A DNA stretch of 64,000 nucleotides from Spirochaetia bacterium (GTDB lineage: Bacteria; Spirochaetota; Spirochaetia; UBA9216). Under the pieces are notes generated by a model. It did not search any database, had not been told where the DNA came from, and saw only the letters and a list, made by a program, of their open reading frames with translations. The position numbers and the translations under genes were made by a program. The stretch's first letter is position 1. The number at the start of each line of letters is the position of its first letter. Below, piece after piece: positions 18,043 to 46,664 of this stretch. The stretch spans positions 1,120,001 to 1,184,000 of the forward strand of contig CAXXYH010000004.1 in assembly GCA_963677925.2 (NCBI GenBank), in the 5' to 3' direction.

Positions 18043-19116
18043 TTGGCAGTTGAAATCGTTTATGAAGAAAATAATAAAATTGGTATAATTTTCCCTTTTG
18101 ATGCCCAGATTCTGGATATTGTACGCACAATACCCGGAAGACAATGGCAGCCCGCAAATAAAAAATGGACATTTCCGGATACTGATGCAAATATGCAGCA
18201 TTTTCTCTTATCATTATATAAAACCGGCAGGTTTAATGTGGATGAGAAGGCTCTCGAAAATCAGGAACCGTCTCATAGCCGCTATTTGGAAAAAATGCTT
18301 CAGTATCTAAAGCTTAGAGACTATAGTCCTCATACTATTGAAACGTATAAGATGCAGCTCAAGTGGTTCTTTGATAGAACAGAACTTTCTCCTTCAGAAG
18401 TCACGACCGAGGATATCAAATTATATCTGGAGAAAATGCGGACACTGGCGGGGTGTTCAAGAACATACTTTGTACAATGTGTGAGCGCCCTGAAAAGCTT
18501 CTATAAGTATGGTTATCCCGGCGGTCTGTTTAATCCTGCAGCATCGATTCCCATGCCGAAAAAAGAAAAGAAGTATCCGGATATTCTATCCAGGGAAGAA
18601 GTGAAGAAGATAATAACATCTCCGTCGAATATTAAGCACCGATTGCTATTATCATTAATATACTCTGCAGGTCTCCGAGTAAGCGAAGCCGTTATAATAC
18701 AGTTGCAGGATATTGATACCGATAGGAAAGTAATTCATATCAGGCAGGCAAAAGGACGAAAAGATAGATATGTAATGCTTTCAACTGAGATTATTAATAT
18801 GATTAATCAATACAGATCCAAAGTGATGGTGCATACATGGCTTTTTCCTGGCAGTGCAGGTGCGGATACCCATCTTGCTACAAGATCTGCACAGAATGCC
18901 TTTTATAAAGCTATAGAAGCAACAGGTATCGAAAAAAATGTAAGTATACATTCTTTAAGACATGCCTTTGCCACTCATCTGTTGGAAAACGGTACAGACC
19001 TGAGATATATTCAGGAGCTCTTAGGTCACCGTGATCCAAAAACAACACAGATTTATACACATGTAAGTACTAAAGACCTAAAAAATATAAATAGTCCACT
19101 GGACGGGTTATTATGA
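18043..19116 (+). CDS. Tyrosine recombinase, putative non-canonical integron integrase
   Basis: SAM-like domain (YSPHTIETY); catalytic R (GLRVSE), K (AKGRKDR), HxxR (HSLRH), H (LLGH), Y (TQIYTHV); directly abuts the cassette array. Confidence 0.93.
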   Translation: MAVEIVYEENNKIGIIFPFDAQILDIVRTIPGRQWQPANKKWTFPDTDANMQHFLLSLYKTGRFNVDEKALENQEPSHSRYLEKMLQYLKLRDYSPHTIETYKMQLKWFFDRTELSPSEVTTEDIKLYLEKMRTLAGCSRTYFVQCVSALKSFYKYGYPGGLFNPAASIPMPKKEKKYPDILSREEVKKIITSPSNIKHRLLLSLIYSAGLRVSEAVIIQLQDIDTDRKVIHIRQAKGRKDRYVMLSTEIINMINQYRSKVMVHTWLFPGSAGADTHLATRSAQNAFYKAIEATGIEKNVSIHSLRHAFATHLLENGTDLRYIQELLGHRDPKTTQIYTHVSTKDLKNINSPLDGLL

Positions 19117-19190
19117 ATAACAGGTTTATAAGGATTTAAGCTGGAGGGTTATATGAATGATATACCAGTTTATAATTCTGAGTTTATATG
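19105..19190 (+). promoter_or_regulatory. Putative attI-like primary recombination site
   Basis: Repeated GTT(T)ATA motifs (gggttattatgaat..gtttataa and gggttatatgaat..gtttataa); the first cassette left end TTATATGCAATGGACCCGAC starts at about 19184. Confidence 0.6.
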
Positions 19191-19265
19191 CAATGGACCC
19201 GACAAGAGGAAGACGCCCGGACCTCCGGCCGACGGGCGAAGAGACATAAAGGTGGGGGATTTTTT

Positions 19266-20735
19266 ATGCAAGATTTATATATAAAATATAATAAGAAAGA
19301 TAATAAAATTGATTTTGGGCAAACAAAAGGCTCAATAATCGAGATTACTATAAAGCCACCTTCAATCGTTAAAGAAACAAAAGAAACAGGCATAACGAGA
19401 ATATCTGCTATTCAAGAAGATTTTGATAATCTAATTTCGGGAAAGAAGATGATTGACGTTAATAAAACGACTCTCGAACATTGTTATATCTTGGATAAAA
19501 AGGATCCTTACCGATTAGCGGCGACAAATTTTATTTTAAAAAATGAAAAGGATATTGAAGAATATAGTGAAATTCCAAAAGAAAATGATGCTGGTATATA
19601 TAAAAACTATGTAAAAGCATTTTTAGAAGAATTTACAAGATGTACGAAACACATTCCGTTTGCTGAAAAAATTAAAGTCTATCCTTTACCATTGTTGACT
19701 CCATGTAATGTGGAAGTATTAGTAGGTAAAGATGGTGTGTGCTTTATTTTCTCATCAGAAAGTAGACCTGAAAAAGTAAGTGTTTCCTTAGATATAAATA
19801 AAATAATAGAGGAACTTCTTCTGCCTCATCCTACTAATAGAAGATATTCATCATATGGACCTAATACTATTTTTAATTTTATCTGCTCAGATGAGAATTT
19901 TATACATGTGGTAGGGGATGGGAATGCGTTTTTAGATTCTATGCTAGGGAATCCAGTATTTTTGATTTTTGAAAAATCGTTTCATGGTTATTATTCCAAT
20001 ATGAATTTTATAAGAAATTATCCTGATACGGGACTTCAAGTTAAAAAGAAAGTTGAATATTGTGAAATATTTGGTAATAACCATATCTCTAACTTTTCAC
20101 TTGAAAACGCAAGGAGTAGAGCTAGGATAGTTGCGTATAAATCAATTTTGAGTAGTGTTACAGGAAATGTTAATAAAGTAGAAGAACTTAAAAATGTCTT
20201 GATAGAATTGAAAAACAAAATAAACAATGATGTCGGTGAAATAGAAATTGAGAAATTTATTGATTCAAATAAATGGATTTTAGAGAAAGGGATAGGGTGT
20301 CAAAAATATTTTTCACAAATTTCGATACCGAAAGATTTATTATATGATGCTGATGGTGGAATTAAACCTGATAAATATATGATGAATAATGACGGATATT
20401 GTGATATTTTAGATTTAAAAAAACCATCAGCCAAACTAATTGTAATAAAGAATAACCGCAGTCATCAATCTAGTTCTTTAACCGAAGCGGAGGCACAAAT
20501 TGATAAATATATTGATTTCTCTCGTGAACCAAAGGTTAGAGATTATTTATTAACGCTTAATATAAAAATTACGAAACCTGATGGAATTGTATTGATTGGG
20601 AGAACCCCGAAGGAATATTTAAAAGAATGGATTGATATAAAAAAGAGATTACAAATAAAAGTATATACTTATGATGATTTAGTTAATAATTTGGATAATT
20701 TAATTGATTGGATAGATAAGATTCTTACAATTTGA
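19266..20735 (+). CDS. Cassette 1: Shedu (SduA/DUF4263)-like anti-phage nuclease
   Basis: C-terminal EKFIDSNKWIL...KPD...ILDLKKP...LTEAEAQ...PDGIVLIGR...VYTYDDL; RBS ggtggggg before ATG 19266. Confidence 0.75.
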   Translation: MQDLYIKYNKKDNKIDFGQTKGSIIEITIKPPSIVKETKETGITRISAIQEDFDNLISGKKMIDVNKTTLEHCYILDKKDPYRLAATNFILKNEKDIEEYSEIPKENDAGIYKNYVKAFLEEFTRCTKHIPFAEKIKVYPLPLLTPCNVEVLVGKDGVCFIFSSESRPEKVSVSLDINKIIEELLLPHPTNRRYSSYGPNTIFNFICSDENFIHVVGDGNAFLDSMLGNPVFLIFEKSFHGYYSNMNFIRNYPDTGLQVKKKVEYCEIFGNNHISNFSLENARSRARIVAYKSILSSVTGNVNKVEELKNVLIELKNKINNDVGEIEIEKFIDSNKWILEKGIGCQKYFSQISIPKDLLYDADGGIKPDKYMMNNDGYCDILDLKKPSAKLIVIKNNRSHQSSSLTEAEAQIDKYIDFSREPKVRDYLLTLNIKITKPDGIVLIGRTPKEYLKEWIDIKKRLQIKVYTYDDLVNNLDNLIDWIDKILTI

Positions 20736-20788
20736 ATTAAGAATCCAGACCTAACTCCGTTGAACGGTCTGGATGTCGGGTCCAAAGC

Positions 20789-20882
20789 ATAAAACAGGGG
20801 CTATGTGTATCGTCGCTATGCGCTCCTCGGGCTGCGCCACATACGGCTACGCCGTACGTCACATAACACCGGGACGTTATGA
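20789..20882 (+). repeat. attC-like site 1
   Basis: ataaaac-aggggctatgtg...cacataacacc-gggac-gttatga. Confidence 0.88.
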
Positions 20883-20993
20883 GCAATAAGCCCGACAAGT
20901 AAAAGACGCCCGGACCTCCGGCCGACGGGCAAAGAGAGACAGTGTGATAAAATATTATACTAAAAAAGTAAATATAGAATTAAGGGTTTTCAT

Positions 20994-21587
20994 ATGAAAA
21001 AAATAATATGTGTTCTAATCCTTTACATATTATCTATTTTTAGTTGTGTTACAACAGAAACTGTAAATATCAAGAAAGATAGTATGGAAAAGAGTGATTC
21101 TGTCTCTAAAGAAGAATTCAAAATTAGCATAAAAGAATTTGATGATATTTCAAAATATAAAAAGCTTATAAATTTATATGCATTTAAATATAGTGATGAG
21201 AGCAATACAGAATTTCGAGTTTTTACAGGTAGATGTTCAGCTTTTGTCAGGGACAATGGATATTCATCAATATTGCTGAACAATTCTGATGAGAGAGAAA
21301 TAATAAATAGTTATGAAGGTGATTATGAAAAAATTGCTATTATAAATGTCCATACAGTTGATTTAGATAAAGAAAATGGGAAAATTATAATAATCATGTT
21401 TGGAATAAATGATGATGATAAAGAAAAAATATTGTATGTACCTTTTTGGATTGCTACAGCAGAAGGTAAAAGTGTTGAGATTTTGAAATTAAAAAGTAGA
21501 GAAGAAGTTGGAAAATACATGATAGATTGTTTTTTTAATAATATGGAAATTTCTAATGAGTTGATTTATACATTAAGTGGAAATTAG
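20994..21587 (+). CDS. Cassette 2: hypothetical lipoprotein
   Basis: MKK + hydrophobic core + IFSC lipobox. Confidence 0.8.
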   Translation: MKKIICVLILYILSIFSCVTTETVNIKKDSMEKSDSVSKEEFKISIKEFDDISKYKKLINLYAFKYSDESNTEFRVFTGRCSAFVRDNGYSSILLNNSDEREIINSYEGDYEKIAIINVHTVDLDKENGKIIIIMFGINDDDKEKILYVPFWIATAEGKSVEILKLKSREEVGKYMIDCFFNNMEISNELIYTLSGN

Positions 21588-21660
21588 ATTATTCATAACA
21601 ATGAAGGATAAAGAATCCAGCCCTAACTCCGTTGGACGGTCTGGATGTCGGGCTTAAAGC

Positions 21661-21755
21661 TCATAACAGGGGCTATGTGCTTCGTCGCTATACGCTCCTC
21701 GGGCTGCGCCACATACGGCATTCGCCGTACGTCACATAACCCCGGGACGTTATAG
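21661..21755 (+). repeat. attC-like site 2
   Basis: tcataac...cccgggac-gttatag. Confidence 0.9.
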
Positions 21756-21848
21756 CGCAATGAGCCTGACAAGATGAAAATCGCCCGGACCTCCGGCCGA
21801 CGGGCGAAGATATATATATGCTAAGTATCCAAAAAAGGTGATATGTAA

Positions 21849-22385
21849 ATGAATTATCAAACAGTCTATGATATTTCTAAATCTTCTTATAATTGGGTAT
21901 TCCCCTTTTTAGGAATACTTATAACCATTTTATTAATAATTTTTACTAAAGTGGTAAGAAGAAACTTGAAAGTTTTAAATAGGATAGAGGCAGAAAAAGA
22001 AAAAAAGGAAATTTTCTATAATTTTAATAATCCATATGTGAGTAATATGTTGAGACGATTACCCATGGTTTTCACGATATTGGCTTCTATAGCGACCGTT
22101 TTTATAACTTATGGATCTATAAATTATTATGTGAAATTAAATGAAGTGATTCAAAATCAAGAGTATTCAGTTGTTGAAGATAAAATAAAAATTATTAATA
22201 AGTTTGAAACAAATAGAATTCAAAATTTCAAAGTTGGAAAATTTATTTTTAATGTTGCGGATATAAACTCCATCAGAATCTCATTTTGGAAATCTGGAAC
22301 ATATGAAGATTTTTTAGTTGAAGGTCAAGATGTTAAAGTTTATTTTTATGGAAAGTATATTTTGCGTGTTGATTTAATGAAATGA
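21849..22385 (+). CDS. Cassette 3: hypothetical two-TM membrane protein
   Basis: Two hydrophobic segments; RBS aggtga. Confidence 0.75.
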   Translation: MNYQTVYDISKSSYNWVFPFLGILITILLIIFTKVVRRNLKVLNRIEAEKEKKEIFYNFNNPYVSNMLRRLPMVFTILASIATVFITYGSINYYVKLNEVIQNQEYSVVEDKIKIINKFETNRIQNFKVGKFIFNVADINSIRISFWKSGTYEDFLVEGQDVKVYFYGKYILRVDLMK

Positions 22386-22520
22386 ATATGCATGCAAAAT
22401 TTCTATTCATATAGTTACTATTAAAGAGTAATTACTAAGAAATTTGAGTATTATTTTAGCATATAAGAGTGGGAATCCAGACCTAACTCCGTTGAACGGT
22501 CTGGATGTCAGGCTCAAAGC

Positions 22521-22843
22521 GCATAACAGGGGCTATATGCTCGTCGCTAAACGCTCCTTGGGCTTCGCCACATTTTTATTTTCTGAATTGGGTAATTGGG
22601 TACAGCATTTAACAAGAGATTTGGAGTAGTCAAAACCTTTGTCACAGTTCTGGCTAAAGACACTCCGCGCTGATCGCGCTACGTTCCAGAACTGCGCCAA
22701 GCCTCGGAGACTCGGCCGGTTTCGCTACTCAAATCGTCGTTAAATGCACAGAAATGTGCCAATAGTTTATGATTGAGAAATACGGGTAAGTGGTGGTAAA
22801 ATTAAGAAAAATAAAAACGTCATATAACCCCGGGGCGTTATGA
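22521..22843 (+). repeat. Long attC-like site 3 with a nested attC
   Basis: Same outer stem as the short sites; contains gcatttaac (22605)...gttaaatgc (22747). Confidence 0.88.
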
Positions 22844-22960
22844 GCAATGAGCCCAACAAGAGGAAGACGCCCGGACCTCCGGCCGACGGGCGAAGAATCG
22901 ATTGGTTTGATTTTTATAACTGATAAGTGATGTCAAAAGTAATATAAAGAATAGGTTGGT

Positions 22961-23680
22961 ATGGATATACAAGAGGATAAAGTAAATAATAATTTGATTG
23001 CGCAAGATTTAGAATTAGGAGTAATAACTATGGGGGCAGCAACGATTGATCAAAGACATAATTTTGCATACCAACATATGCACTCAGCTATTGAATTTAG
23101 GAATCAAACTTATAAAATTGAAGAAGATAATAAAAACGAAAAATTTGGATATTTTTTTGAGTTGATTAGAACATATGTAAGTGGTTGTATATTCTTTTCA
23201 GTGGCTTCAGTAGAGGCAAATATAAATGAAATTATATGTGATATTATTGAAAATAAAATAAAATTAGGTGAGTTTGAAAAAAAGAAAATTATTGAAATAA
23301 ATGATAGAGAGTCTACTCTTAAAAAATACGAAATCATATTAAACGAGGTAATGAAGTTTGAATTATCAAAAGATAAAGAAATTTATCAAAATATGAAAAT
23401 TTTAATAGATGTAAGAAATGCTTTTACTCATTTCAAACCAGAATGGGAATCAAATCAGAAATGGCATGATAAAATTGGAAGAAAATTATCTGGGAAAATC
23501 AAGATGACTCCATACATAGAAGATAGCAGTCCGATTTTTCCGATGCGTTGCATGACTTATGATTTTTGTTGTTGGTCCACAATATCAAGTTATAATTTTA
23601 TGAAAGAAATTTTTAGTTTACTATCAATAAGAAATAAATTTGAGAAATTTGAAGAAACAATTTATAAGGGTAGTAATTAA
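22961..23680 (+). CDS. Cassette 4: putative HEPN-domain protein
   Basis: Helical protein with SVEANIN and an RNAFTH (Rx4H) motif. Confidence 0.6.
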   Translation: MDIQEDKVNNNLIAQDLELGVITMGAATIDQRHNFAYQHMHSAIEFRNQTYKIEEDNKNEKFGYFFELIRTYVSGCIFFSVASVEANINEIICDIIENKIKLGEFEKKKIIEINDRESTLKKYEIILNEVMKFELSKDKEIYQNMKILIDVRNAFTHFKPEWESNQKWHDKIGRKLSGKIKMTPYIEDSSPIFPMRCMTYDFCCWSTISSYNFMKEIFSLLSIRNKFEKFEETIYKGSN

Positions 23681-23761
23681 TATAATTATATAGCTTATTT
23701 TTATAGTGTAAGGGAATCCAGACCTATCTCCGTCGAACGGTCTGGATGTTGGGCTCAAAGC

Positions 23762-24085
23762 GCATAACAGGGGCTATATGCATCGTCGCTAAATGCTCCT
23801 CGGGCTGCGCCACATTTTTATTTTGTAATTGGGTTAATAGGGTATAGCATTTAACAAAAGATTTGGAGTAGTCACAACCTTTGTCACAGTTCTGGCTAAA
23901 GACACTCCGCGCTGATCGCGCTGCGTTCCAGAACTGCGCCAAGCCTCGGTGACTCGGCCGGTTTCGCTACTCAAATCGTCGTTAAATGCACAGACATGTG
24001 CCAATAGTTTATGATTGTGAAATACGGGTAAGTGGTGGTAAAATTAAGAAAAATAAAAACGTCATATAACCCCGGGACGTTAGCT
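23762..24085 (+). repeat. Long attC-like site 4 with a nested attC
   Basis: Near-identical to site 3; inner element at 23847-23989. Confidence 0.88.
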
Positions 24086-25040: not shown

Positions 25041-25367
25041 AGCTAACAGGGGTTATTTGCTTCGTCGCTATGTGCTCCTCGGGCTTCGCAACATTTTTAT
25101 TTTTGTAAATGGACGATATGACAAAAGGCATTTAACAATGATTTGCAGCAGTCCTGGCTATTTTCACGGTTTTAGCTAAAGACGTTCCGCGCTGATCGCG
25201 CTGCACTCTAAAACCGAGCCAATGCCGTAGGAGACTACGGCCGCCAGGCAGCTGAAATCGGCGTTAAATGCACAGACATGTGCCAATAGTTTATGATTGA
25301 GAAATACGGGTAAGTGGTGGTAAAATTAAGAAAAATAAAAACGTCATATAACCCCGGGACGTTATAC
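25041..25367 (+). repeat. Long attC-like site 5 with a nested attC
   Basis: agctaac...gttatac; inner element at 25128-25271. Confidence 0.88.
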
Positions 25368-25821: not shown

Positions 25822-25915
25822 GTATAACAGGGGCTATGTGCTTCGTCGCTATACGCTCCTCGGGCTGCGCCACATACGGCTTCGCCGTACGTCACATAAC
25901 CCCGGAACGTTATCT
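25822..25915 (+). repeat. attC-like site 6
   Basis: gtataac...cccggaac-gttatct. Confidence 0.9.
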
Positions 25916-26783: not shown

Positions 26784-26875
26784 AGATAACAAGGGTTACA
26801 CGCTCCGGCCATACGGCCTGCGGGCTGAGCCACATTCGGCTACACCGAACGTCGTGTAACCCTGGAACGTTATCT
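26784..26875 (+). repeat. attC-like site 7
   Basis: agataac-aagggttacac...gtgtaaccct-ggaac-gttatct. Confidence 0.88.
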
Positions 26876-26990
26876 GCAATGTTTCCGCCAAGAGGAAGAT
26901 GCCCGGACCTCCGGCCGACGGGCGAAGAAGAATGAGGTTTGAATATACTAATTAGTGAGATAAGATAAAATAAAAAAATGAGGTAGCATT

Positions 26991-27560: not shown

Positions 27561-27637
27561 GAAAGAGAGAAAGAGAGAAAGAGAGAAACCAGCCCTGGCT
27601 CCGCCGTACGGTCTGGCTGAAGAGGCGGAAACACAGC

Positions 27638-27816
27638 AGATAACAGCGGCTATGTGCGGCGTCGCTAAACGCTCCTTGGCCTACGGCATATTTTGTTTTG
27701 GCATCGCTTTTGCGAAGAGGTAGAAAAATATAGGGTAAAGGCGTCGAATGCAAAAGTGCTGCCAATCGGCCTGTAGGGCCGACCACAAAACATCACATAA
27801 CCGCGGGACGTTATAG
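27638..27816 (+). repeat. attC-like site 8 (extended apical arm)
   Basis: agataac-agcggctatgtg...cacataaccgc-gggac-gttatag. Confidence 0.85.
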
Positions 27817-27930
27817 GAAATATTTTGGCTAAGAGAAAGACGCCCGGACCTCCGGCCGACGGGCAATAAGGAAAAAAAGAATAAATTTTAAAATTGATAT
27901 ATTATGTCAATATATAAGAAATGAAACGTA

Positions 27931-29057: not shown

Positions 29058-29156
29058 TAAAGTTTGTTTTGGGATACTGTTAAAGTTGAAAGTTGTATGT
29101 TTAAGAGTCCAGCCCTATCTCCGATGTACGGTCTGGCTCAAGAGCCAAAATACTTC

Positions 29157-29479
29157 CTATAACAGGGGCTATATGCTCAGCCCATTCGGGCTTCGGGCTG
29201 CGCCACATTTTTATTTTATGGATTGGGCTATTTGGGTATAGCATTTAACAAAAGTTTTGGAGCAGTCCTGGCTATTGTCATGATTCTGGCAGAGACGTTC
29301 CGCGCTGATCGCGCTGCACTCCAGAATCACGCCAATGCGCGCGAAGACACGCGCCGCCATGCAGCTCAAAACGTCGTTAAATGCACAGACATGCGCCAAT
29401 AGTTTGTGATTGGTAAATACGGGTAAGTGGTGGTAAAATTAAAAAAATAAAAACGTCATATAACCCCGGGACGTTATGC
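29157..29479 (+). repeat. Long attC-like site 9 with a nested attC
   Basis: ctataac...gttatgc; inner element at 29241-29384. Confidence 0.88.
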
Positions 29480-29950
29480 GGACATCGCCGGAGCATGGTT
29501 ATGGGGTGGAGAAAGTTCCGAACAAGAAGTGATTACCAAATAGTTTGCAATATTCAATTCGCCCTAGATTGAGGAAGATTTTTGATTTTGATTTGGATGT
29601 TGTTGGAAGAAGGTCGTTAAAATTGACGAAGCTTGTTCTGGCGTGAAAGAAAAAGTATTGTCTTAAAATTATCAAAATCTTTTTTGAAGATGGAGCAGGT
29701 TTTACCATTTTGCAAGTCTGATTCACTCGCATAGCTCGTTGACTTGCGACTTAATAAAAATGATTGTTTTACTTGCAAAGGGCGAATAGAATATTGAGAA
29801 GAAATAGAAAGAGAAGATTGTATAGATTATTTGATTGATCGGAATCTTTCTCTAATAAAGGCGACGTCGCATAACAGGGCACATGCGGCTACGGGGTCAA
29901 GCCCCTTCGCCCAAATTGGCCTGCGGCCAACTTCGCATATGCCCGGGACG
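29474..29950 (+). other. Cassette 10: ORF-less structured cassette (includes attC-like site 10, 29869-29956)
   Basis: No credible + strand ORF; nested inverted repeats; diverged tandem copy follows. Confidence 0.8.
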
Positions 29951-30426
29951 TTATGCGGACATCGCCGTAGCATGATCTTGGGGTGGAGAAAGTTCCGAAC
30001 CAGAAGTGATTACCAAATAGTTTGCAATATTCAATTCGCCCTGGATTGAGGGAGATTTTGGATTTTGATTTTGTGGTTGTCAGAAGAAAGCCGTTGCATC
30101 TGACGAAGTTTATTCTGACGTGGAAAAAAGTATTGTTTTATAATTATCAAAATCTGCTTCGTGGACTTGGCAGGGTTTTCCGTTTGGCAAGTCTGCCTCA
30201 CTCGCTTTGCTCGTTGACTTGCAGGTGAAATAAAAATGATTGTGAAAGTCGCAAAGGGCGAATAGAATATTGGGTAGAAATGGTAAGAGGAGATTTGTTA
30301 GGTCATTTGATTGATCGGAATCTTTCTCTAATAAAGGCGACGTCGCATAACAGGGCACATGCGGCTACGGGGGCAAGCCCCTTCGCCCAAATTGGCCTGC
30401 GGCCAACTTCGCATATGCCCGGGACG
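29951..30426 (+). other. Cassette 11: ORF-less structured cassette, paralogue of cassette 10 (includes attC-like site 11, 30345-30432)
   Basis: 476 bp versus 477 bp; stems conserved while linkers have diverged. Confidence 0.8.
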
Positions 30427-30500
30427 TTATAGGAAATGCCCATCAAAATCTTTGAAAGATCCTCGCCATCCATGGCTCGGTTTAGAAGAATAGAAAGAAG

Positions 30501-31093: not shown

Positions 31094-31188
31094 CTATAAC
31101 AGGGGCTATGTGCTTCGTCGCTATGCGCTCCTCGGGCTGCGCCACATACGGCTTACGCCGTACGTCACATAACCCCTGGACGTTAGCT
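31094..31188 (+). repeat. attC-like site 12
   Basis: ctataac...gttagct. Confidence 0.9.
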
Positions 31189-31313
31189 GAAATGCCCCCG
31201 CGAAGAGAAAGACGCCCGGACCTCCGGCCGGCGGGCGATAAGGAAATTATAATATGCATAATTGATTTACAAGTCTAAATATAGTACTATATAAGCACTA
31301 ATAGGAGTTTATT

Positions 31314-31917: not shown

Positions 31918-31982
31918 AGAAACATTAAAAGAATCCAGACCTAACTCCGTCGAACGGTCTGGATGAAGAGCGGGGGCACTAC

Positions 31983-32075
31983 AGCTAACAGGGGCTATGT
32001 GCATCGTCGCTATACGCTCCTCGGGCGCGCCACATACGGCTTCGCCGTACGTCACATAACCCCGGGACGTTAGAC
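31983..32075 (+). repeat. attC-like site 13
   Basis: agctaac...gttagac. Confidence 0.9.
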
Positions 32076-32791: not shown

Positions 32792-32882
32792 GTCTAACAA
32801 GGGTTATTCGCTCGTCACTACGCTCCTCGGGCTGCGCCACATACGGCTTCGCCGTACGTCACATAACCCCGGAACGTTATCC
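32792..32882 (+). repeat. attC-like site 14
   Basis: gtctaac...gttatcc. Confidence 0.88.
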
Positions 32883-33643: not shown

Positions 33644-33725
33644 AGATAACAAGGGTTACACGCTCCGGCCATTCGGCCTACGCCCAAATTGCTGCGCAAC
33701 TTCGCTTAACCCTGGAACGTTAGCT
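33644..33725 (+). repeat. attC-like site 15
   Basis: agataac-aagggtta...taaccct-ggaac-gttagct. Confidence 0.88.
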
Positions 33726-33846
33726 GAAATGCAACCGCTAAGAGAAAGACGCCCGGACCTCCGGTCGACGGGCGATCATGAAGAGAAAGAATATAAAAAT
33801 TGACATGATATATATCAAGGTATATACTTAAAATAGAGGTGGGTAT

Positions 33847-34475: not shown

Positions 34476-34529
34476 AAGAATCCAGCCCTAACTCCGTCGA
34501 ACGGTCTGGATGAGGAGCGGTGGCACTAC

Positions 34530-34623
34530 AGCTAACAGGGACTATGTGCTCGTCGCTTTATGCTCCTCGGCCTTCGCCACATACGGCTTACGCCGTACGT
34601 CACATAACCCCGGGACGTTATGT
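34530..34623 (+). repeat. attC-like site 16
   Basis: agctaac...gttatgt. Confidence 0.88.
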
Positions 34624-36261: not shown

Positions 36262-36408
36262 ACATAACAGCGAATATGCGGTTGCGCTTCGCTCCACCCA
36301 AATTGCTTCTTTGATAAAATCTGAAAAAAGTATGTTATACTTTTTCCAGATTTTATCAAGCCCCGCAAGGGGGCTGAAGCAACTTCGCATATTCGCGAAA
36401 CGTTATAT
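36262..36408 (+). repeat. attC-like site 17 (extended)
   Basis: acataac-agcgaatatgcg...cgcatattcgc-gaaac-gttatat. Confidence 0.87.
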
Positions 36409-37116: not shown

Positions 37117-37211
37117 ATATAACAGGGGCTATGTGCTTCATCGCTGTGCGCTCCTCGGGCTGCGCCACATACGGCTTGCGCCGTACGTCACATATCCCCG
37201 TGAAGTTAGAT
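37117..37211 (+). repeat. attC-like site 18
   Basis: atataac...gttagat; slightly degenerate. Confidence 0.82.
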
Positions 37212-37888: not shown

Positions 37889-37967
37889 AGCTAACAGGGG
37901 CTATACGCTCCTCGGGCTGCGCCACATTCGGCTGCGCCGAACGGCACATAATCCCGAAACGTTATGT
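37889..37967 (+). repeat. attC-like site 19 (internally deleted)
   Basis: agctaac-aggggctatacgctcc lacks one arm; ends gttatgt. Confidence 0.8.
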
Positions 37968-38484: not shown

Positions 38485-38560
38485 ACATAACAGCGAATAT
38501 ACGGTTCCGCTTTGATTCACCCAAACTGGCCGTTGACCAGCTTCGCATATTCGCGGGATG
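38485..38560 (+). repeat. attC-like site 20 with its GTT crossover deleted
   Basis: acataac-agcgaatat...atattcgc-ggga is followed directly by tggcaataagcac. Confidence 0.8.
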
Positions 38561-38629
38561 GCAATAAGCACTATATTTATTGAGAAAAGCTGAATCTGCC
38601 ATCCATGGCAGATAAAAGGATTTAAATGC

Positions 38630-39514: not shown

Positions 39515-39663
39515 CTATAACAGAGAATATACACTGCGGCTCGCCTTGGCATTCTGCAAATCGCCTTTGACAAATACCTGATGAAATGTGATACAATTTC
39601 CCATATATTTATTACCCCTATAGGGGTGCCAGGCGACTTTCGTATATTCGAGGAACGTTAGGC
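39515..39663 (+). repeat. attC-like site 21 (extended)
   Basis: ctataac-agagaatatac...gtatattcga-ggaac-gttaggc. Confidence 0.8.
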
Positions 39664-40175: not shown

Positions 40176-40257
40176 CCCTAACAGCGAATATGCGGTTCTA
40201 CATGGCTTCAACCAAATTAGCCTGCGGCCAACTTCGCATATTCGCGGGACGTAATCT
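40176..40257 (+). repeat. attC-like site 22 (last site; GTT mutated to GTA)
   Basis: ccctaac-agcgaatatgcg...cgcatattcgc-gggac-gtaatct. Confidence 0.8.
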
Positions 40258-40375
40258 GAAATGCCACCGCGAAGATGTAGCTGCCCGGGTCTCCGGCCGG
40301 CGGGTGATTCTGCAGAGAAAGAATTAAAAACTGTCACGATATATCAAGGTCTATACTTTAAGTAGAGCTGAGTAT

Positions 40376-40860
40376 ATGTAAAACTGCAAAAATATTTCAG
40401 AATGGAAGATCTCAAGCCATTCAAATCCCGATAGAATATCAGTTTAAAGGTTATGAAGTATACATTAAAAAACATGGTGATGCTGTATTGCTGATTCCAC
40501 ATGAAAAAGTATGTGAATTAATAAAAGAAAGATCGAAAGAATATAATCCGGTTTATGATGGTCCTCAATTTAAAAATATTAATATCAAACCTTTCAGAAT
40601 AAATGAGTCTGCATCTGAAGAACTCTTTAAGATTAGATATTTTTTCAATCAAAATAAAAATACATTTTACTTTCTTTTCAAGAAAAAAGAGTTAATTGGT
40701 GCAACTCTATATCTGTGAAATTATATTCAATCGCTCTGCATTAACCGAAAGTACCAAAGAATGGGATATGGTGCTAAGCTAACAAAATTCGTTGTAAATA
40801 AAATACTATCAGATGGTCATGACAAGGTTACATTAAAAGTTGTAATTGAAAATATTCATA
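40376..40860 (+). pseudogene. Cassette 23 remnant: broken vapB-vapC copy fused to a GNAT fragment
   Basis: DNA similar to 33847-33978 joined to 34129-34170, then LYL*NYIQSLCINRKYQRMGYG. Confidence 0.8.
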
Positions 40861-40923
40861 ATTAATGTTATTAATTATAAGTTTGTCTTTTGTGACAGGC
40901 TAATTCAAAAGTAGGAGAAACGT

Positions 40924-41391
40924 ATGAGTTTCAAAAGCAAAAATGAATTAGGTCTATCTGACGTATGTTGTAAGAATTTTTTAAATGATTTAGAAACCGA
41001 AAATGTTTGGAGTTTTTTTCAAAGATTTGAAAAAGATTCAGACCCCACCGATTTAACTGTAGCCGAAGAGTCTTATTTTGATAATTTTCTGTTTTGTGAT
41101 CCAAGTAGTGCTAATTCAATTAAGAAAGAAGATTTCTTGAAATTTTTACCAATTATGACAACTAAATATAAAGAGTTGGGGTACAAAGATAAAAAGTTAA
41201 AAGGACTAGATGTCATCAAATTGAATGATTATTATCTATTAGTCAATGTTACCTGGAATATGATATTTGTAAAGAATGATTTATTAAATGAATATGATGA
41301 TATTAAAGCTACTTATATTTTAAAAAAAGAAAAAAATGGGCATAAAATTATATTTCATTTGGATCATCAAAAATTAAGTGAGATTGTCTAA
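40924..41391 (+). CDS. NTF2/SnoaL-like hypothetical protein
   Basis: LVNVTW...ATYILKKEKNGHKI pattern; RBS aggag. Confidence 0.6.
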   Translation: MSFKSKNELGLSDVCCKNFLNDLETENVWSFFQRFEKDSDPTDLTVAEESYFDNFLFCDPSSANSIKKEDFLKFLPIMTTKYKELGYKDKKLKGLDVIKLNDYYLLVNVTWNMIFVKNDLLNEYDDIKATYILKKEKNGHKIIFHLDHQKLSEIV

Positions 41392-41538
41392 AAAAAGATA
41401 AGAAATGAAGATAAATCCGTGACTCTTAATAATTAAAATTTCCTCAATCTTTTAAAGATAAAAAGTGAGAAAAATTCTTGCAAATCATGTAATAACATAG
41501 TAAGCTATATGTAATTACATCAATATTTAGGGGCCTCA

Positions 41539-41952
41539 ATGCGTATACCAATAATTAATATCGGAAATTCTAAGGGGATAAGGATTCCTCAGGCAATTCT
41601 TAAACAGGTTAGCTTTAGTGGTGAGATTGACTTAGAAATTGATAATGGAAAAATTGTTTTAAACAGATCCAATAGTCCCGATATAGTACCGGATTTTGAT
41701 TCAATACCGGAAATGGATGATATTACTATACAAAGAATGTTAAGAAAAATAACCGGTATGGATCTGATCACTTCCTTAATAGATGCAGATCAAAGTATTA
41801 AAGAAGCTGTCTATAGAAATCTATCAGAACGCGTTAGAAATTATGTGGTTTTAAAAGTAGAAAAGTTGGAGAAGGGAGATGCTAAAGATTTAATTATTGA
41901 GCAAAGCCGTAATGCTATAAGTGAAGCCTTTATGGATTTAAAAAATGAATAA
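41539..41952 (+). CDS. AbrB/MazE DNA-binding domain fused to a FliG C-terminal-like domain
   Basis: IGNSKGIRIP followed by FDSIPEMDDITIQRMLR...VYRNLSER. Confidence 0.75.
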   Translation: MRIPIINIGNSKGIRIPQAILKQVSFSGEIDLEIDNGKIVLNRSNSPDIVPDFDSIPEMDDITIQRMLRKITGMDLITSLIDADQSIKEAVYRNLSERVRNYVVLKVEKLEKGDAKDLIIEQSRNAISEAFMDLKNE

Positions 41953-42148
41953 AGTAAAGGAGGCTTTAATGGAGAATTTGAATAAGATAATGGAAATGAG
42001 TGACGGGCAAATTCAGGAATCTTTCGACTTATGCAAGGTCTGCAATTGAAAATTCTGTTAATAAATTTAAAAAAGCAGAAATAAAGATTTAGAGATACAA
42101 ACGAGTATTCAATTAATTAAAAGTTTAATTGAAAAAAAGGCAATTGCT

Positions 42149-42505
42149 ATGGATATTTTTAAAGCCATAAAAAATGGAAATATAGAATTTATTCGCAATT
42201 ACATTAAAAGTGGAAATGATTTAAGCATAAGAGATTAATATGAAATGACTCCACTGATTGTAGCAACTGATGAAGGTAGATTAGAGCTTGTTAAATTGCT
42301 GATAGAAGCCAAGGCTGATATAAATGATCAAGACACAGTCGGGCAGACTGCTTTGCATTTAGCTGCAGGCAGAAATTACACTGAAATCATAAAACTTTTA
42401 ATAAAAGCAAAAGCAAGAATAGATATTAAAGCTGTTAATCGTTTGACAGCATTTGAATATGCTACGGAAAATGGAATGAAAGAAGCTGCACTGCTTTTAA
42501 AGTAG
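42149..42505 (+). pseudogene. Ankyrin-repeat protein with an in-frame stop
   Basis: MDIFKAIKNGN...RD*YEMTPLIVA...GQTALHLAA; TAA at 42236-42238. Confidence 0.75.
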
Positions 42506-42662
42506 GTAGAGAAAATGAGAAATATGTGTATTCATTCCTTGGAACGGTTTATAATATGAGTCGGGATAAATTGATATCAGGCACTATTTAGAATTGTTAA
42601 AAAAAGAGGAATCCATAGCCGTATAGAAAGCTCTTGTTGTATATGCGGTTTTGAGTTATCTA

Positions 42663-43454
42663 ATGAAGATTGAAAACTTAATAAATTCATATGATTCAAC
42701 AGCTGAAGTTTATGATGAAGAAACAAGTACTTTTCATCATAAAATTTGTGAATTTCTCACAATAAAAAACATGCTTTTAGAATTACCTGAAGATACAAAT
42801 ATAAAAATATTAGATGCTGGCGGCGGCACGGGTAAATATTCAATTATTCTGAATGATTATGGATACTCTCCTGAACTAATTGATATAAGCAGTAAAAGTG
42901 TCGAGGTATTTAATAAGAAAATGGAACAAAGAGGACTGGCTCTCAAGTCGTTTGTATGCAATGCAGAATCAACTCCTTTTAAAAGAGAACGGTTTGATTT
43001 TATTATGATGAACGGCGGGGTGATTGGTTATACTCTTAATCCTTCAATGTTGCTCAAAGAAGTTCATAGAATTTTAAAAGCAGATGGTAAGCTCTGGTTT
43101 GATTTTCCTAACACATTAGGCTGGGCAATTGAAGTACAAGATCCGGGTTTGAAAATTGAATTATCTAAGGCTGATGATAAAATGATTCAGATGCCTGACT
43201 GGGATTATCCAGTAAGACTGTTTAGCTTGAGGAAGATTGAAAAGATGCTGAATGATGCAGGATTTGAGATAAAATCAAAATACGGATTAATTTTTTTGTC
43301 TAATTCCCTTCCTTTGAAAGAAAGATATTCAAAAAAATATAATCTTGAGTTGCTTGAAAAATATAAAATAGCCGAGCTGGAATTAAGCAGAAAAAAAGAT
43401 TGCGTAAGGGCCTCTTGGGCGTGTTCCATTTGTGCAAAAAAAATATTCCATTGA
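42663..43454 (+). CDS. Class I SAM-dependent methyltransferase
   Basis: ILDAGGGTG, IDIS, RILKADG. Confidence 0.88.
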   Translation: MKIENLINSYDSTAEVYDEETSTFHHKICEFLTIKNMLLELPEDTNIKILDAGGGTGKYSIILNDYGYSPELIDISSKSVEVFNKKMEQRGLALKSFVCNAESTPFKRERFDFIMMNGGVIGYTLNPSMLLKEVHRILKADGKLWFDFPNTLGWAIEVQDPGLKIELSKADDKMIQMPDWDYPVRLFSLRKIEKMLNDAGFEIKSKYGLIFLSNSLPLKERYSKKYNLELLEKYKIAELELSRKKDCVRASWACSICAKKIFH

Positions 43455-43486
43455 ATCACCTTGCGTTTCAGTAAAAGAGAGGTCTT

Positions 43487-43969
43487 ATGAGTAATGCAGT
43501 TTTAATTTTTTTTGCAATAGCAATAATAATGATTGTTGGTTTTTATAAAAATAAAAAATCAAAAAGCATCAGTACCCATGAAAGATTAGAGGATGAAGCG
43601 CTTGATTATAATCAGGAATTTATTGAAAATTCAGAGGGTAAAGATATTATCCCGTTTGTTCGAATTTTTGCACAATCAGATAAACTGATGCTCCGATCTC
43701 TGCTTTCTTCAGAAGGTGTATGCACATACATTACAAATGAAAACACAAACAATCTGTTTCCAGGCAGAATGGTACAGGGCTATACTGATACTGTAATATA
43801 TATTTTCAAAGAGGATCAGGCTATGGCTCGACCAATAATTGAAGACTATATTTTGAATCTTATTGAAAATATAAATCCGGAAATTAAAACAAAGGCAATA
43901 GATTTGGTTGCGGCAATGGCTTTGCTGCCTACCAGTATGAATCAGATATTACCGGAGTTTATTGATTGA
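43487..43969 (+). CDS. Membrane-anchored DUF2007-like protein
   Basis: N-terminal TM; LRSLLSSEGV..ITNEN pattern. Confidence 0.55.
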   Translation: MSNAVLIFFAIAIIMIVGFYKNKKSKSISTHERLEDEALDYNQEFIENSEGKDIIPFVRIFAQSDKLMLRSLLSSEGVCTYITNENTNNLFPGRMVQGYTDTVIYIFKEDQAMARPIIEDYILNLIENINPEIKTKAIDLVAAMALLPTSMNQILPEFID

Positions 43970-44826
43970 GTACTGAAATTTATTATTTTTCCGGTACAGG
44001 AAACTGTCTGTACACAGCCAGAATGATAGGGACAGAAAATAATTTTAAAGTAATCTCAATACCTCAGTTCCTGAAGAGCTCTGATAATACTGTACAGGCC
44101 GAACGGATAATTATTGTCTTTCCGTCATATCTGGCTGCTGCTTGCGGAGTTCCTCTGATTGTAGAAAGGTTCGTTAGGGCAATTGAGGATATTGAACTGA
44201 AAAAGATAACCGCTGTCTGTACATGCGGGGGGTATGAAATAGTAAACGCCAATCCTTCATTGATAAAGCTGAAAAAAATAATTGAATCGGCTGGGGGCAG
44301 GTTGGAAACAAGGTTTTCACTGCGGCTTCCGATGAATAACCTTGATTATGAACATATCCCGGTTCCTATAGAAAAAAGAACCGAGCATATATTAACGCAA
44401 GCCGAGTCAAAATTACAAAAAATCAGTAAACAAATTGGAAGCAGCACAGGGGGGCAATTTGAAATTTCGAATACATTATTCAATTTTATAATACAACCCC
44501 TTTTTAAAATAATGAAAAATGCTACATTAAACAGCTTGAGAGGATATGCAGAAGAGGTTAACCCTTCTTTAAGCTGTAATGAATTATTACCTCTGACAGA
44601 TAGAAGAATTAAAGTTAAGGAAAATTGTAACGGCTGTGGAGTCTGTGCAAGGATATGTCCTGTAGAAAATATTGAATTAATAAATGGAAGTCCCCAATTC
44701 ATGCACAAGTGTGAAGTGTGTTTTGCCTGTGATGAATGGTGTCCGCAGGGCGCTATACAGCACTGGGGCAGATCCCGCGGCGTTAAATACCATCATCCAA
44801 AGATAAAAATAAACGATATGTTTTAG
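43966..44826 (+). CDS. EFR1-type flavodoxin plus 4Fe-4S ferredoxin protein
   Basis: YFSGTGN; two CxxCxxCxxxCP motifs. Confidence 0.9.
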   Translation: MSTEIYYFSGTGNCLYTARMIGTENNFKVISIPQFLKSSDNTVQAERIIIVFPSYLAAACGVPLIVERFVRAIEDIELKKITAVCTCGGYEIVNANPSLIKLKKIIESAGGRLETRFSLRLPMNNLDYEHIPVPIEKRTEHILTQAESKLQKISKQIGSSTGGQFEISNTLFNFIIQPLFKIMKNATLNSLRGYAEEVNPSLSCNELLPLTDRRIKVKENCNGCGVCARICPVENIELINGSPQFMHKCEVCFACDEWCPQGAIQHWGRSRGVKYHHPKIKINDMF

Positions 44827-44872
44827 TTTCCTGCGAAGCAGGAACTTAGTATTATTCAATCAGGAGTGAATT

Positions 44873-45166
44873 ATGGGAATGCATTGTGTTGTCTTTCATT
44901 ATCCAGGACCAAAATGGCAGGATGAATATGATTTTAGAAATCAGCCTGGAATTATGGAACATGTGGAGCATTATTCAAAACTGATGGAGTCAGGGAAACT
45001 TCGAATGGGTGGACCCTTTTCTGATGCAGATTCCGGAGGGATGATGATTGCAGAAGATGGTGTTTCCATGGAAGAAATTGAAAAGTTTGCCTCCGACGAT
45101 CCAGCTGTAAAGAAAGGCCTGCTTACTTTTAAAGTAAGATTGTGGTATGTTCCTATGAGTAAATGA
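44873..45166 (+). CDS. YCII-related protein
   Basis: EHVEH...GGPF...DPAVKKG. Confidence 0.85.
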   Translation: MGMHCVVFHYPGPKWQDEYDFRNQPGIMEHVEHYSKLMESGKLRMGGPFSDADSGGMMIAEDGVSMEEIEKFASDDPAVKKGLLTFKVRLWYVPMSK

Positions 45167-45906
45167 AAAGAATAATTATCGCCGGTCTTCTGACTGTATT
45201 TGTTCTCGTAATAGCTGCAGCTGCTTCATTTCAGTACAGCAGGTCTTGGCAGAATGCCCTGTTTGTACACCCATTGTACCGGCTTCCGGGAGATGAAAAA
45301 GTTGTGGCACTTACCTTTGATGACGGGCCGTCTGAGAAAAGAACGCCGGCTCTTTTAGCTATGCTTGAAGAAAATAATGTTAAAGCTTCTTTTTTTATGC
45401 TTGGCGAAAATATTGAAAGATATCCTGATATCGCCCGGCAGGTGTATGAAAAGGGACATCTCATAGGAAATCACTCTTATGACCATCCGCGAATGATTTT
45501 TAAATCTTTCAGTTTTGTCAGAAATCAGATAACCAGGACCGACGGTCTTATTAAATCAGCAGGCCAGATTAATATTCAGTATTTTCGGCCGCCATATTCT
45601 TCAAAATATATTGTTCTGCCGCTGGTTCTTAAAGCAATGGATAAAACTCTTGTGACCGGTTCCTATGATCCGCCCTCTGAATATATCAGACCGTTTGATG
45701 CGGAAAAAGTTGCAGCCGAGGTTATTGAAAATGCAGAACCAGGTGCTGTGATCTATCTTCATGACGGCAAAGATTCTGATGTGCAAGAGTTTATTGAATC
45801 CGTTAGACTAATCATAAGCGGTCTTCGAGCTGAAGGTTATAGATTTGTAAGGCTTGATTATCAGAATGAGCATTTAAAAGAAAGCTTTGCACTTGAGATA
45901 CACTAA
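45163..45906 (+). CDS. Polysaccharide deacetylase (NodB family)
   Basis: LTFDDGP, NHSYDH, FRPPY, YLHD. Confidence 0.93.
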   Translation: MKRIIIAGLLTVFVLVIAAAASFQYSRSWQNALFVHPLYRLPGDEKVVALTFDDGPSEKRTPALLAMLEENNVKASFFMLGENIERYPDIARQVYEKGHLIGNHSYDHPRMIFKSFSFVRNQITRTDGLIKSAGQINIQYFRPPYSSKYIVLPLVLKAMDKTLVTGSYDPPSEYIRPFDAEKVAAEVIENAEPGAVIYLHDGKDSDVQEFIESVRLIISGLRAEGYRFVRLDYQNEHLKESFALEIH

Positions 45907-45947
45907 GCAGAACCGTATACTGGAGCCGGCAATCAAGGAGTACAATT

Positions 45948-46193
45948 ATGAAAATAGATAAAAATGAAATAATCAGACTGCTTAATGAAAAAAAGGCACT
46001 GCTTCCATGTCATAGATGTGGAACAGAAAACTTTACTGTAATGAACAGTTTTTCAAAGGTAATATTGCAGGATGATATAAACAGCGAGACTGATATAGAA
46101 GGAGCCTCTGTGCCCGTGGCAATAATTGCGTGCAGGAACTGTGGTGCTATTACTTTTCATGCCCTCGGCGCTCTCGGTGTTCTTCAGGGTTAA
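45948..46193 (+). CDS. Small zinc-ribbon protein
   Basis: CHRC and CRNCG; RBS aggag. Confidence 0.7.
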   Translation: MKIDKNEIIRLLNEKKALLPCHRCGTENFTVMNSFSKVILQDDINSETDIEGASVPVAIIACRNCGAITFHALGALGVLQG

Positions 46194-46202
46194 TAACTTT
46201 AA

Positions 46203-46643: not shown

Positions 46644-46664
46644 AAACACTAAAAAGGTTATTTC

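Follow-up and report, generated by a model that had tools for sequence, protein, structure and literature searches.

The stretch of DNA analyzed here (hereafter, the window) spans 64,000 nucleotides (nt) of a Spirochaetia bacterium genome (GCA_963677925.2, contig CAXXYH010000004.1, positions 1,120,001 to 1,184,000) and carries, between positions 20792 and 40254, a chromosomal cassette array with 22 attC-like sites, all in one orientation. We read these repeats as the recombination sites of a second integron-like system, endowed with its own recombinase and its own site geometry, and assign this reading a probability of roughly 0.55. The cognate enzyme would be the product of the adjacent gene (18043–19116, + strand, in the cassette direction), a Xer/XerA-like tyrosine recombinase of 357 aa with an apparently intact catalytic hexad, a HARP-like N-terminal domain and no insertion of the kind specific to integron integrases (I2). 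A first-pass annotation of the window, made from the letters alone, had described folded bottom-strand sites; the connection between their geometry and a recombinase that lacks the element reading extrahelical bases was not part of it and is drawn here.

Site geometry and the folded strand

On the + strand, each repeat follows the consensus NNN-TAAC-A-(11 nt)...(11 nt)-GRRAC-GTTA-NNN. As in attC, inverted R'' and R' boxes carry AAC and GTT triplets, with TAAC...GTTA retained in 19/22 sites (the exceptions being site 1, which has AAAC, site 22, which has GTAA, and site 20, which has lost R'), and an L''/L' helix is kept by structure: the window holds four stem types (GGGGCTATGTG, AGGGTTACACG, GCGAATATGCG and GGGCACATGCG), each complementary to its own partner. 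Among the 242 L-stem positions, 213 are Watson-Crick pairs, 21 are top-strand C.A mismatches that become G.T pairs on the bottom strand (many of these cells reflect one inherited position and are not independent events), one is a top-strand G.T and seven are of other kinds. The departure from attC lies in the spacer and in the L stem. Instead of a symmetric spacer of 5–6 nt on both arms, 20/22 sites have 1 nt (A) on one arm and 5 nt (GGGAC, GGAAC, GAAAC or similar) on the other, the two remaining cases being a site with a 0/4 spacer and site 20, which has no R'; the 11-bp L stem is free of unpaired bases throughout the 22 sites, i.e., the extrahelical bases of attC are absent. When the bottom strand folds, the single T is paired to the G of GTYYC, leaving a pure 4-nt one-sided bulge on the AAC arm. 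In a set of 94 sites, in which those from relatives had been pre-selected for a spacer asymmetry of 2–5 nt, A follows TAAC in all 94, and the bases before GTTA are C in 91 and A in 87. The 1-versus-5 nt bulge beside the crossover, the compensatory stem variants and the C/A mismatches convertible into G-T pairs were all proposed in the first-pass annotation, and they hold across the array in the proportions just given.

The short repeats, at 57% G+C, stand out from the surrounding DNA (32% G+C) and are located between small + strand open reading frames (ORFs). A covariance model trained on 46 distinct short sites from 8 genomes (R1) returned 22 matches in the window at E ≤ 1, identical to the set listed by hand, and none outside 20.8–40.3 kb. 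Within the 5-Mb genome, similar repeats are confined to this array and to one array on another contig (C3), each beside a tyrosine recombinase. A scan for perfect stems (≥7 bp) overlooked most sites owing to the C.A positions, as did a 10-bp scan of contig C3, and these strict scans were replaced by blastn and looser scans. Rfam, which holds no attC model, gave no match in the window at gathering thresholds and only two chance-level matches (E ≤ 1) within 19100–23000. A sequence-level search by blastn with two representative sites found no match among 72,556 plasmids.

Folding of both strands with DNA parameters gave a lower minimum free energy (MFE) for the bottom strand in 22/22 sites, by 1.3 to 11.6 kcal/mol (mean difference −4.53 kcal/mol), with 3.23 G:T pairs per site on the bottom strand vs. 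0.86 on the top. The bottom-strand MFE structure has at least two hairpin loops in 19/22 sites, i.e., a branched apex, and C-GNA-G triloop hairpins number 20 on the bottom strand vs. none on the top, spread over 16/22 sites. The window sites thus show the combination known from attC, a bottom strand that is more stable, richer in G:T pairs and purine-rich at its apex. Hairpins of the d(GCGNAGC) type are unusually stable, and the folding parameters grant them no bonus. In line with the single-site folds, the RNAalifold consensus of 46 sites from 8 genomes (RNA parameters) reaches −18.66 kcal/mol and 16 pairs on the bottom strand, where it consists of a 5-bp R helix, the bulge and an 11-bp L helix with compensatory changes in 7/16 pairs, vs. 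−1.85 kcal/mol and 8 pairs on the top strand. The pair adjacent to the R box is G.U in 44/46 aligned sites; an arm (arm 1) directly follows the L helix in 45/46 sites, built from 20 different stems, and has G.T at its third pair in 43/45. Junction motifs are also conserved in the inner region of the sites, so that the apex is not merely "variable". The fold is under selection on one strand.

Judged by folding energy, by the G.T pairs conserved at three positions and by the GNA loops, the bottom strand probably is, with somewhat better than even odds, the strand that is recombined, and with this strand as the substrate the geometry truly differs from the canonical one. According to the GC skew, the bottom strands of both arrays of the genome are the leading-strand template, as reported for 25/30 sedentary chromosomal integrons (Loot, 2017). 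In the published account of 263 canonical attC sites from mobile integrons, the bottom strand exceeds the top in stability by a mean of 2.12 kcal/mol and holds 1.24 G:T pairs vs. 0.39 on the top, its apex usually presents a conserved GAA, and the sites have 5–6 unpaired nt per arm and 2–3 extrahelical bases opposite the bottom-strand AAC (PMC5027507). Since strand bias, G:T wobbles and loops are thus published for canonical attC, and the strand bias is also seen in the canonical-type sites of this very genome (see below), they are not distinctive: together with branched apices, they are ordinary attC traits and not new. What is genuinely different is the 4-nt bulge on the bottom-strand AAC arm together with the absence of extrahelical bases. 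The first-pass annotation had argued for a folded bottom strand of different recognition geometry, with a multi-branched apex and bottom-strand arms of the GCGNAGC type. Its structural predictions are borne out by the folds above, and its claim of a different geometry survives in the one-sided bulge and the uninterrupted L stem; the strand bias, wobbles, loops and branching that it had also listed do not set the sites apart.

Cassettes as discrete recombination units

In integrons, the crossover falls inside R', and the bases beyond GTT therefore come from the next cassette. The window array shows the same hybrid R': the R'' of a site is the exact reverse complement of the R' of the preceding site at 15/20 junctions, whereas only 2/21 sites match their own R'. 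When the order of R' boxes was shuffled 10,000 times, the mean number of matches was 2.1 and the maximum 8. In a sister genome (L047), the rule holds at 22/22 junctions. The three bases flanking each R'' on its outer side agree with the preceding R' and not with the site's own, which places the crossover inside the TAAC/GTTA core; each cassette is a discrete recombination unit.

The predicted cargo of these units is typical of integrons, and comprises a Shedu-like protein, the toxin-antitoxin pairs BrnT/BrnA, Phd/ParE and MazE/PemK, two VapBC-like pairs, several GNAT acetyltransferases and methyltransferases. The Shedu-like protein (515 aa, with a Shedu SduA C-terminal domain at E 1.9e-12) is encoded by the first cassette (19188–20735), so that a predicted anti-phage defense gene is the cassette closest to the recombinase. 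Nine cassettes begin with a leader of ~59 nt, which starts at the crossover TTA and has a hairpin-capable core (GCCCGGACCTCCGGCCGACGGGC); its copies are located at 19184–19242, right after the recombinase gene, and at 20877–20935, 21752–21810, 22838–22896, 26870–26928, 27811–27869, 31183–31241, 33720–33778 and 40252–40310, it is present in the C3 array too, and it has no match in Rfam. A second conserved element, a 41-nt hairpin (CCAGACC...GGTCTGG), separates the stop codon from R'' in eight cassettes (20740–20780, 21612–21652, 22472–22512, 23713–23753, 27584–27624, 29104–29144, 31930–31970 and 34477–34517). This hairpin also occurs upstream of canonical-type sites in the C3 array and is therefore independent of site type; its role might be that of a terminator or of an RNA element. 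A cassette of ~476 bp is duplicated in tandem at 29452–30430 (86–92% identity), with no ORF of at least 60 aa that fills it convincingly. Beyond the last site, at 40258–47200, low-GC and one-directional small ORFs continue for ~7 kb (FliG_C-like, ankyrin, methyltransferase, YCII, polysaccharide deacetylase, GNAT and NUDIX proteins). R1 finds nothing there at E ≤ 1, and the run may consist either of ordinary genes or of old cassettes whose sites have decayed.

The individual sites, all on the + strand, differ in stem, apex and preservation. Site 1 (core 20792–20879, within 20789–20882; R1 score 79.9 bits) reads AAAC-A-GGGGCTATGTG...CACATAACACC-GGGAC-GTTA and is slightly degenerate, with AAAC for TAAC and an extra L' mismatch. 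The same stem type is found in site 2 (21664–21752; 92.1 bits) and site 6 (25825–25912; 97.8 bits), whereas AGGGTTACACG characterizes site 7 (26787–26872; 95.3 bits), in which 11/11 stem pairs are Watson-Crick, and site 15 (33647–33722; 73.1 bits). Stem type GGGCACATGCG is that of the duplicated cassette, i.e., of site 10 (29872–29953; 69.4 bits) and its tandem copy, site 11 (30348–30429; 68.8 bits), and GCGAATATGCG that of site 17 (36265–36405; 47.6 bits), with the spacer GAAAC and a long apex, and of site 22 (40179–40254; 55.0 bits). Long apices are also present in site 8 (27641–27813; 43.2 bits), with the stem GCGGCTATGTG, and site 21 (39518–39660; 20.6 bits), with GAGAATATAC. Sites 12 (31097–31185; 88.9 bits), 13 (31986–32072; 82.8 bits), 14 (32795–32879; 83.4 bits) and 16 (34533–34620; 80.5 bits) are further members of the array, site 14 having a near-identical copy at 125740–125830 of contig C3. 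Site 18 (37120–37208; 80.0 bits), with the spacer GTGAA, is partly degenerate, site 19 (37892–37964; 65.6 bits) is short and lacks one arm, and site 20 (38488–38566; 38.9 bits) is degenerate. The four remaining sites are composites of 317–321 nt, in which a bulged outer site carries a complete canonical-type site of ~133 nt in its apex: sites 3 (22524–22840) and 4 (23765–24082), which R1 matches partially (E 0.25 and 0.11, respectively), and sites 5 (25044–25364; 21.8 bits) and 9 (29160–29476; 27.0 bits).

The adjacent recombinase, its relatives and the canonical integron

The enzyme encoded beside the array is no IntI. It scores 232.5 bits against the XerA-type model NF040815 (cut-off 220), titled "site-specific tyrosine recombinase/integron integrase" by NCBI, 194.2 bits, split in two stretches, against the IntI model TIGR02249 (cut-off 265), and 204.8 and 200.8 bits against the XerC and XerD models TIGR02224/5 (cut-offs 335 and 330, respectively). 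Aligned with the VchIntIA structure, its residues 253–276 (24 residues) face residues 176–240 (65 residues) of the 2a3v chain, i.e., the I2 insertion of ~40 residues is absent. Likewise, the alignment with the genome's own IntI (30% identity) shows two gaps, of 31 and 8 residues, in the I2 region, and the C-terminal SPLD tail is common to both proteins. The AlphaFold model (mean predicted local distance difference test score, pLDDT, 88.1) places a single helix (residues 248–260) between beta strands at the I2 position, and its best PDB matches are VchIntIA (2a3v) and archaeal XerA. Residues R212, K237, H303, R306, H329 and Y338 are invariant in 37 homologues and, judged by their position, would form the catalytic R-K-H-R-H-Y set.

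The N-terminus of the protein (residues 1–62; window 18043–18230) contains, at residues 1–60, a confidently modeled beta-beta-alpha-beta-beta-alpha domain. The HARP family (PF07443) matches 21/37 homologues (best E 4e-8), the window protein itself reaching 22.3 bits, under the cut-off of 25; no such match occurs in the genome's own IntI. HARP domains bind forked DNA. An invariant W42 and the motif IPGRRW..P..K.W..P are kept in the closer homologues. Between the recombinase gene and the first cassette lies a putative attI-like region (19117–19190, + strand) with three direct GTTTATA(A/T) repeats, the last of which abuts the leader of the first cassette (leader motif D6, beginning at 19184). A ATAACAGG motif in this region overlaps the stop codon of the recombinase gene, and the region also contains GGGTTATATG, a motif matching the L-stem sequence found in the most frequent site type.

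A housekeeping role at dif does not agree with the location of the gene, which abuts the cassette array, or with the occurrence of its homologues in only 32 of the 401 genomes sampled from the class; furthermore, two separate Xer-like genes are located at 2.273–2.279 Mb of contig C4 and branch apart from the array-associated clade. In a quick tree, rooted at the midpoint and including two outgroup sequences, this pair of housekeeping Xer proteins is separated from IntI and the array-associated clade with 99% support in the Shimodaira-Hasegawa-like approximate likelihood ratio test (SH-aLRT). The 12 IntI proteins form one clade (100%) nested, with weak support (80–87%), in a grade of I2-less enzymes. 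This topology is compatible with an origin of IntI from I2-less enzymes and does not show it.

Within the sample of 401 genomes, in which related genomes are not independent and a close homologue is defined by E ≤ 1e-60, the I2-less homologue is present in 32 genomes, a TIGR02249 match over the cut-off in 127, and both in 18. Many homologues lie at contig ends; among the 10 loci with usable downstream sequence, homologues at 36–58% identity are followed in nine by same-orientation arrays of the same geometry and with different stems. No array follows the homologue in L048, a locus only 4.3 kb long. R1 matches occur in 16/31 genomes with a close homologue, in 12/37 IntI-positive genomes without one and in 2/12 genomes with neither. 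When 11 of the 14 R1-positive genomes without a close homologue were re-searched at E ≤ 1e-20, a weaker homologue (33–42% identity, in frames of 270–350 residues and without the HARP region) was found within 5 kb of the sites in six genomes and within 17 kb in two further ones; four of the weaker homologues adjoining arrays are divergent from the array, as in a classical integron, and in the genomes that carry them IntI is hundreds of kilobases away from the bulged arrays. Taken together, at least 15 Spirochaetia genomes from several genera have an I2-less homologue next to an array of this geometry, which is kept from genus to genus even though the stems change in a covarying manner. In this genome and in three others (G039, G091 and G237), the arrays next to a canonical IntI have sites with symmetric spacers, and family f34, which comprises the highest-scoring IntI, has no R1 match in 13/13 genomes. 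Distant homologues in a Pacearchaeota metagenome-assembled genome (MAG), a Nitrospinae MAG, another archaeon and a Bacilli MAG (L002–L005) are not accompanied by an array, and therefore the system is not shown outside Spirochaetia.

The canonical counterpart in the same genome is located on contig C3, where a true IntI (128199–129455; 382.9 bits against TIGR02249) is encoded divergently from an array at ~51.6–126.8 kb. Its 29 detected canonical-type sites have a spacer of 4/3 nt (or 3/3) and, in 29/29 cases, a single additional base on the 5' arm of the top strand, on the side opposite the bottom-strand AAC where the canonical rule expects it; their bottom strand has the lower folding energy in 24/24 (mean −6.47 kcal/mol). 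Successive canonical sites obey the junction rule at 23/28 junctions when the intervening bulged sites are ignored, and the unit from 126646 to 124416 encloses the bulged site nearly identical to site 14 of the window. The composite sites connect both types, the inner canonical-type sites having their own self-complementary R boxes (ATTTAAC/GTTAAAT): composites are intact in 4/4 cases in the window, and are split at the inner canonical site in the C3 array. The junction rule thus operates at bulged sites in the window array and at canonical sites in the C3 array. The simplest reading of these sequence patterns is that recombination in each array took place at the site type belonging to it, with bulged cassettes carried along by IntI as passengers. 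In the C3 array, the first cassette at the canonical attI (127975) starts like one located 10 kb down-array (117775; TTATCTATAATTCGGGTACAGG...), which suggests a recent excision and re-insertion by IntI.

Competing readings, mechanism and known systems

Several observations weigh against a second system with a recombinase of its own. In canonical attC, the extra bases lie opposite the bottom-strand AAC; here they are on the AAC arm itself, the reverse of the canonical rule, which would select the top strand. R1 sites were found in only 16/31 genomes with a close homologue, although R1 is insensitive to long or divergent sites, and three genomes (G273, G023 and G241) have bulged sites without a homologue nearby. 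The shorter, divergently oriented homologues have no HARP-like domain, which is therefore not indispensable to the system. No recombination event was observed: the contig joints (in the assembly of one run) all fall at repeats and are uninformative on excision. Finally, 18 of the 32 genomes with a close homologue also carry an intact IntI, making action in trans possible, and three of five re-examined homologue-positive genomes turned out to have a split or pseudogenised IntI, because of which the statement that arrays exist without IntI rests on two genomes (G189 and G293, 99%-complete).

The last of these points feeds an alternative in which the sites are a local and unusual attC variety and the array, as a CALIN (cluster of attC sites lacking an integron integrase), is served in trans by the IntI of contig C3, the Xer-like gene being a bystander or serving some other purpose. 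We consider this unlikely, though by no means negligible. Besides the presence of a canonical IntI in the same genome and its co-occurrence with the homologue elsewhere, it draws on the presence, in the IntI array, of a few bulged sites and split composites, of which one lies two cassettes away from IntI, and on the tolerance of integrases for diverse attC, deletion of extrahelical bases having left some sites recombining in published work. On the other hand, the junctions of the IntI array skip the bulged sites, from which IntI seems to use its own type; the bulged arrays adjoin the I2-less clade repeatedly while IntI lies far off; G189 and G293 have the homologue and no IntI, G293 with 6 R1 matches; and the recombinase keeps all six presumed catalytic residues.

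Two further explanations concern what the hairpin is for. The recombinase could act on a double-stranded core (RRAC-GTTA / TAAC-A), the hairpin serving another role such as termination between cassettes. Xer-type enzymes do normally use duplex sites, the core bases are strongly conserved and the sites are located at the 3' ends of ORFs, as terminators would be. We nevertheless regard this as improbable: the 11-bp stems vary within one array and covary, which an enzyme reading the sequence would not tolerate, and the strand-specific G.T pairs at three positions and the unequal distribution of C-GNA-G loops point to selection on a folded DNA strand. Moreover, the junction rule mirrors that of integron cassettes, and the wobble-rich strand, if read as RNA, would be antisense to the cassette genes, which does not fit a terminator. 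That the repeats are not recombination sites at all, and instead resemble repetitive extragenic palindromic (REP) elements or terminator repeats, is very improbable. GC-rich hairpins within AT-rich intergenic DNA would suit such elements, yet the REP-like or purely terminator reading is contradicted by the junction rule, whose 15/20 matches exceed anything obtained by shuffling and to which the sister genome shows no exception; the cores (TAAC/GTTA) are likewise conserved, the repeats are limited to two arrays in the 5-Mb genome, each beside a tyrosine recombinase, and the cargo (toxin-antitoxin pairs, acetyltransferases and a Shedu-like gene) is of the integron type.

If the bulged sites are indeed the substrate of the adjacent I2-less recombinase, a mechanism can be outlined. 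The bottom strand would fold, either as single-stranded DNA or by extrusion, into a short R helix (TAAC/GTTA plus the conserved G.T), an 11-bp L helix without extrahelical bases, arm 1, which would continue the L helix and carries the G.T wobble, and one or two small arms, often capped with C-GNA-G triloops. One recombinase monomer would bind the R helix and cleave within AAC, and the six unpaired or weakly paired bases (C plus GTYYC) would represent the central region of the cleaved strand. With almost no central bases on the opposite arm, the site would be pre-kinked between the R and L helices, and a second monomer could bind the L helix, stacked on arm 1. A single strand exchange would follow, with replication resolving the product, as described for integrons and for the integration of CTX phage by XerCD (PMC7790495). 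More speculatively, the HARP-like domain, the bulge-induced kink or both might provide structure-specific recognition in place of I2, the features recognized by the HARP-like domain perhaps being the junction or the bulge. The canonical IntI of contig C3 would act on its own type, with a 4/3-nt spacer and one extra base opposite the bottom-strand AAC.

It is conceivable, and we put this forward more tentatively than the reading of the window array itself, that Spirochaetia hold an IntI-independent integron lineage whose enzymes either never gained I2 or lost it, with a HARP-like, structure-specific DNA-binding domain in many members, marked by bulged hairpins, orthogonal to IntI and perhaps representing the "missing intermediate" between Xer and IntI. 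In the sections that treat it, the literature presents I2 as the integron-defining element that enables recombination of single-stranded attC, without natural intermediates (PMC7790495, PMC9668308, PMC4889954). If the lineage is real, it would offer another structural solution for the recognition of hairpin DNA, and the origin of integrons would become directly testable; as an intermediate, it would also mean that single-strand hairpin recombination is older than I2. Likewise, software that requires an IntI-specific profile would miss a whole class of cassette platforms or file it as CALIN, and two orthogonal cassette systems linked by composite sites would constitute a natural pair of structure-specific recombination tools. 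A literature search, carried out mostly outside subscription journals, found no prior report of an I2-less clade with attC-type arrays or of attC with a 1-versus-5 bulge. Supplementary material may already hold such sites or genes (figures S1 and S5 of Cury, 2016; the Spirochaetes attC set of Ghaly, 2021), and 50 non-IntI recombinases near attC, among 18,808, are mentioned as set aside in Cury, 2016 (PMC4889954).

Among known systems, the closest are canonical integrons such as those of class 1 and the Vibrio superintegron. The window array shares with them a tyrosine recombinase beside a one-directional array of promoterless cassettes, AAC/GTT cores, an R plus L helix with a variable apex and a hybrid R', and a bottom strand that is more stable, richer in G:T pairs, capped by GNA apical loops and placed on the template of the leading strand. 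Unlike them, it has a spacer of 1 vs. 5 nt with the unpaired bases on the AAC arm, no extrahelical bases, an apex with a conserved junction architecture and a recombinase that is devoid of the ~40-residue insertion and stays below the TIGR02249 cut-off. The "reverse" integrons of Spirochaetota come from the same class of bacteria and have their recombinase in the array direction (Coleman, 2004, cited through PMC4909258; PMC9668308), whereas the published account presents their integrases as genuine IntI proteins that include the specific domain (PMC9668308). A CALIN (Cury, 2016) likewise consists of an attC-type array with no IntI within reach, and IntegronFinder would probably file the window array as such if its attC model accepts the sites; the difference is that here a conserved and intact clade of non-IntI recombinases is consistently adjacent.

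Outside integrons, the integration of CTX phage by XerCD, an integrative mobile element exploiting Xer (IMEX), provides a precedent for an I2-less, Xer-type reaction on a folded hairpin, the attP site, which mimics a duplex site, has an imperfect central region and undergoes a single strand exchange (PMC7790495). In that case, however, the housekeeping XerCD and dif serve one phage genome, and there is no dedicated recombinase, cassette array or TAAC/GTTA core. Finally, archaeal XerA (4a8e, 5hxy; NF040815) is the best match of the recombinase among solved structures and curated families, but it resolves chromosome dimers at dif and has neither a HARP-like domain nor a cassette array.

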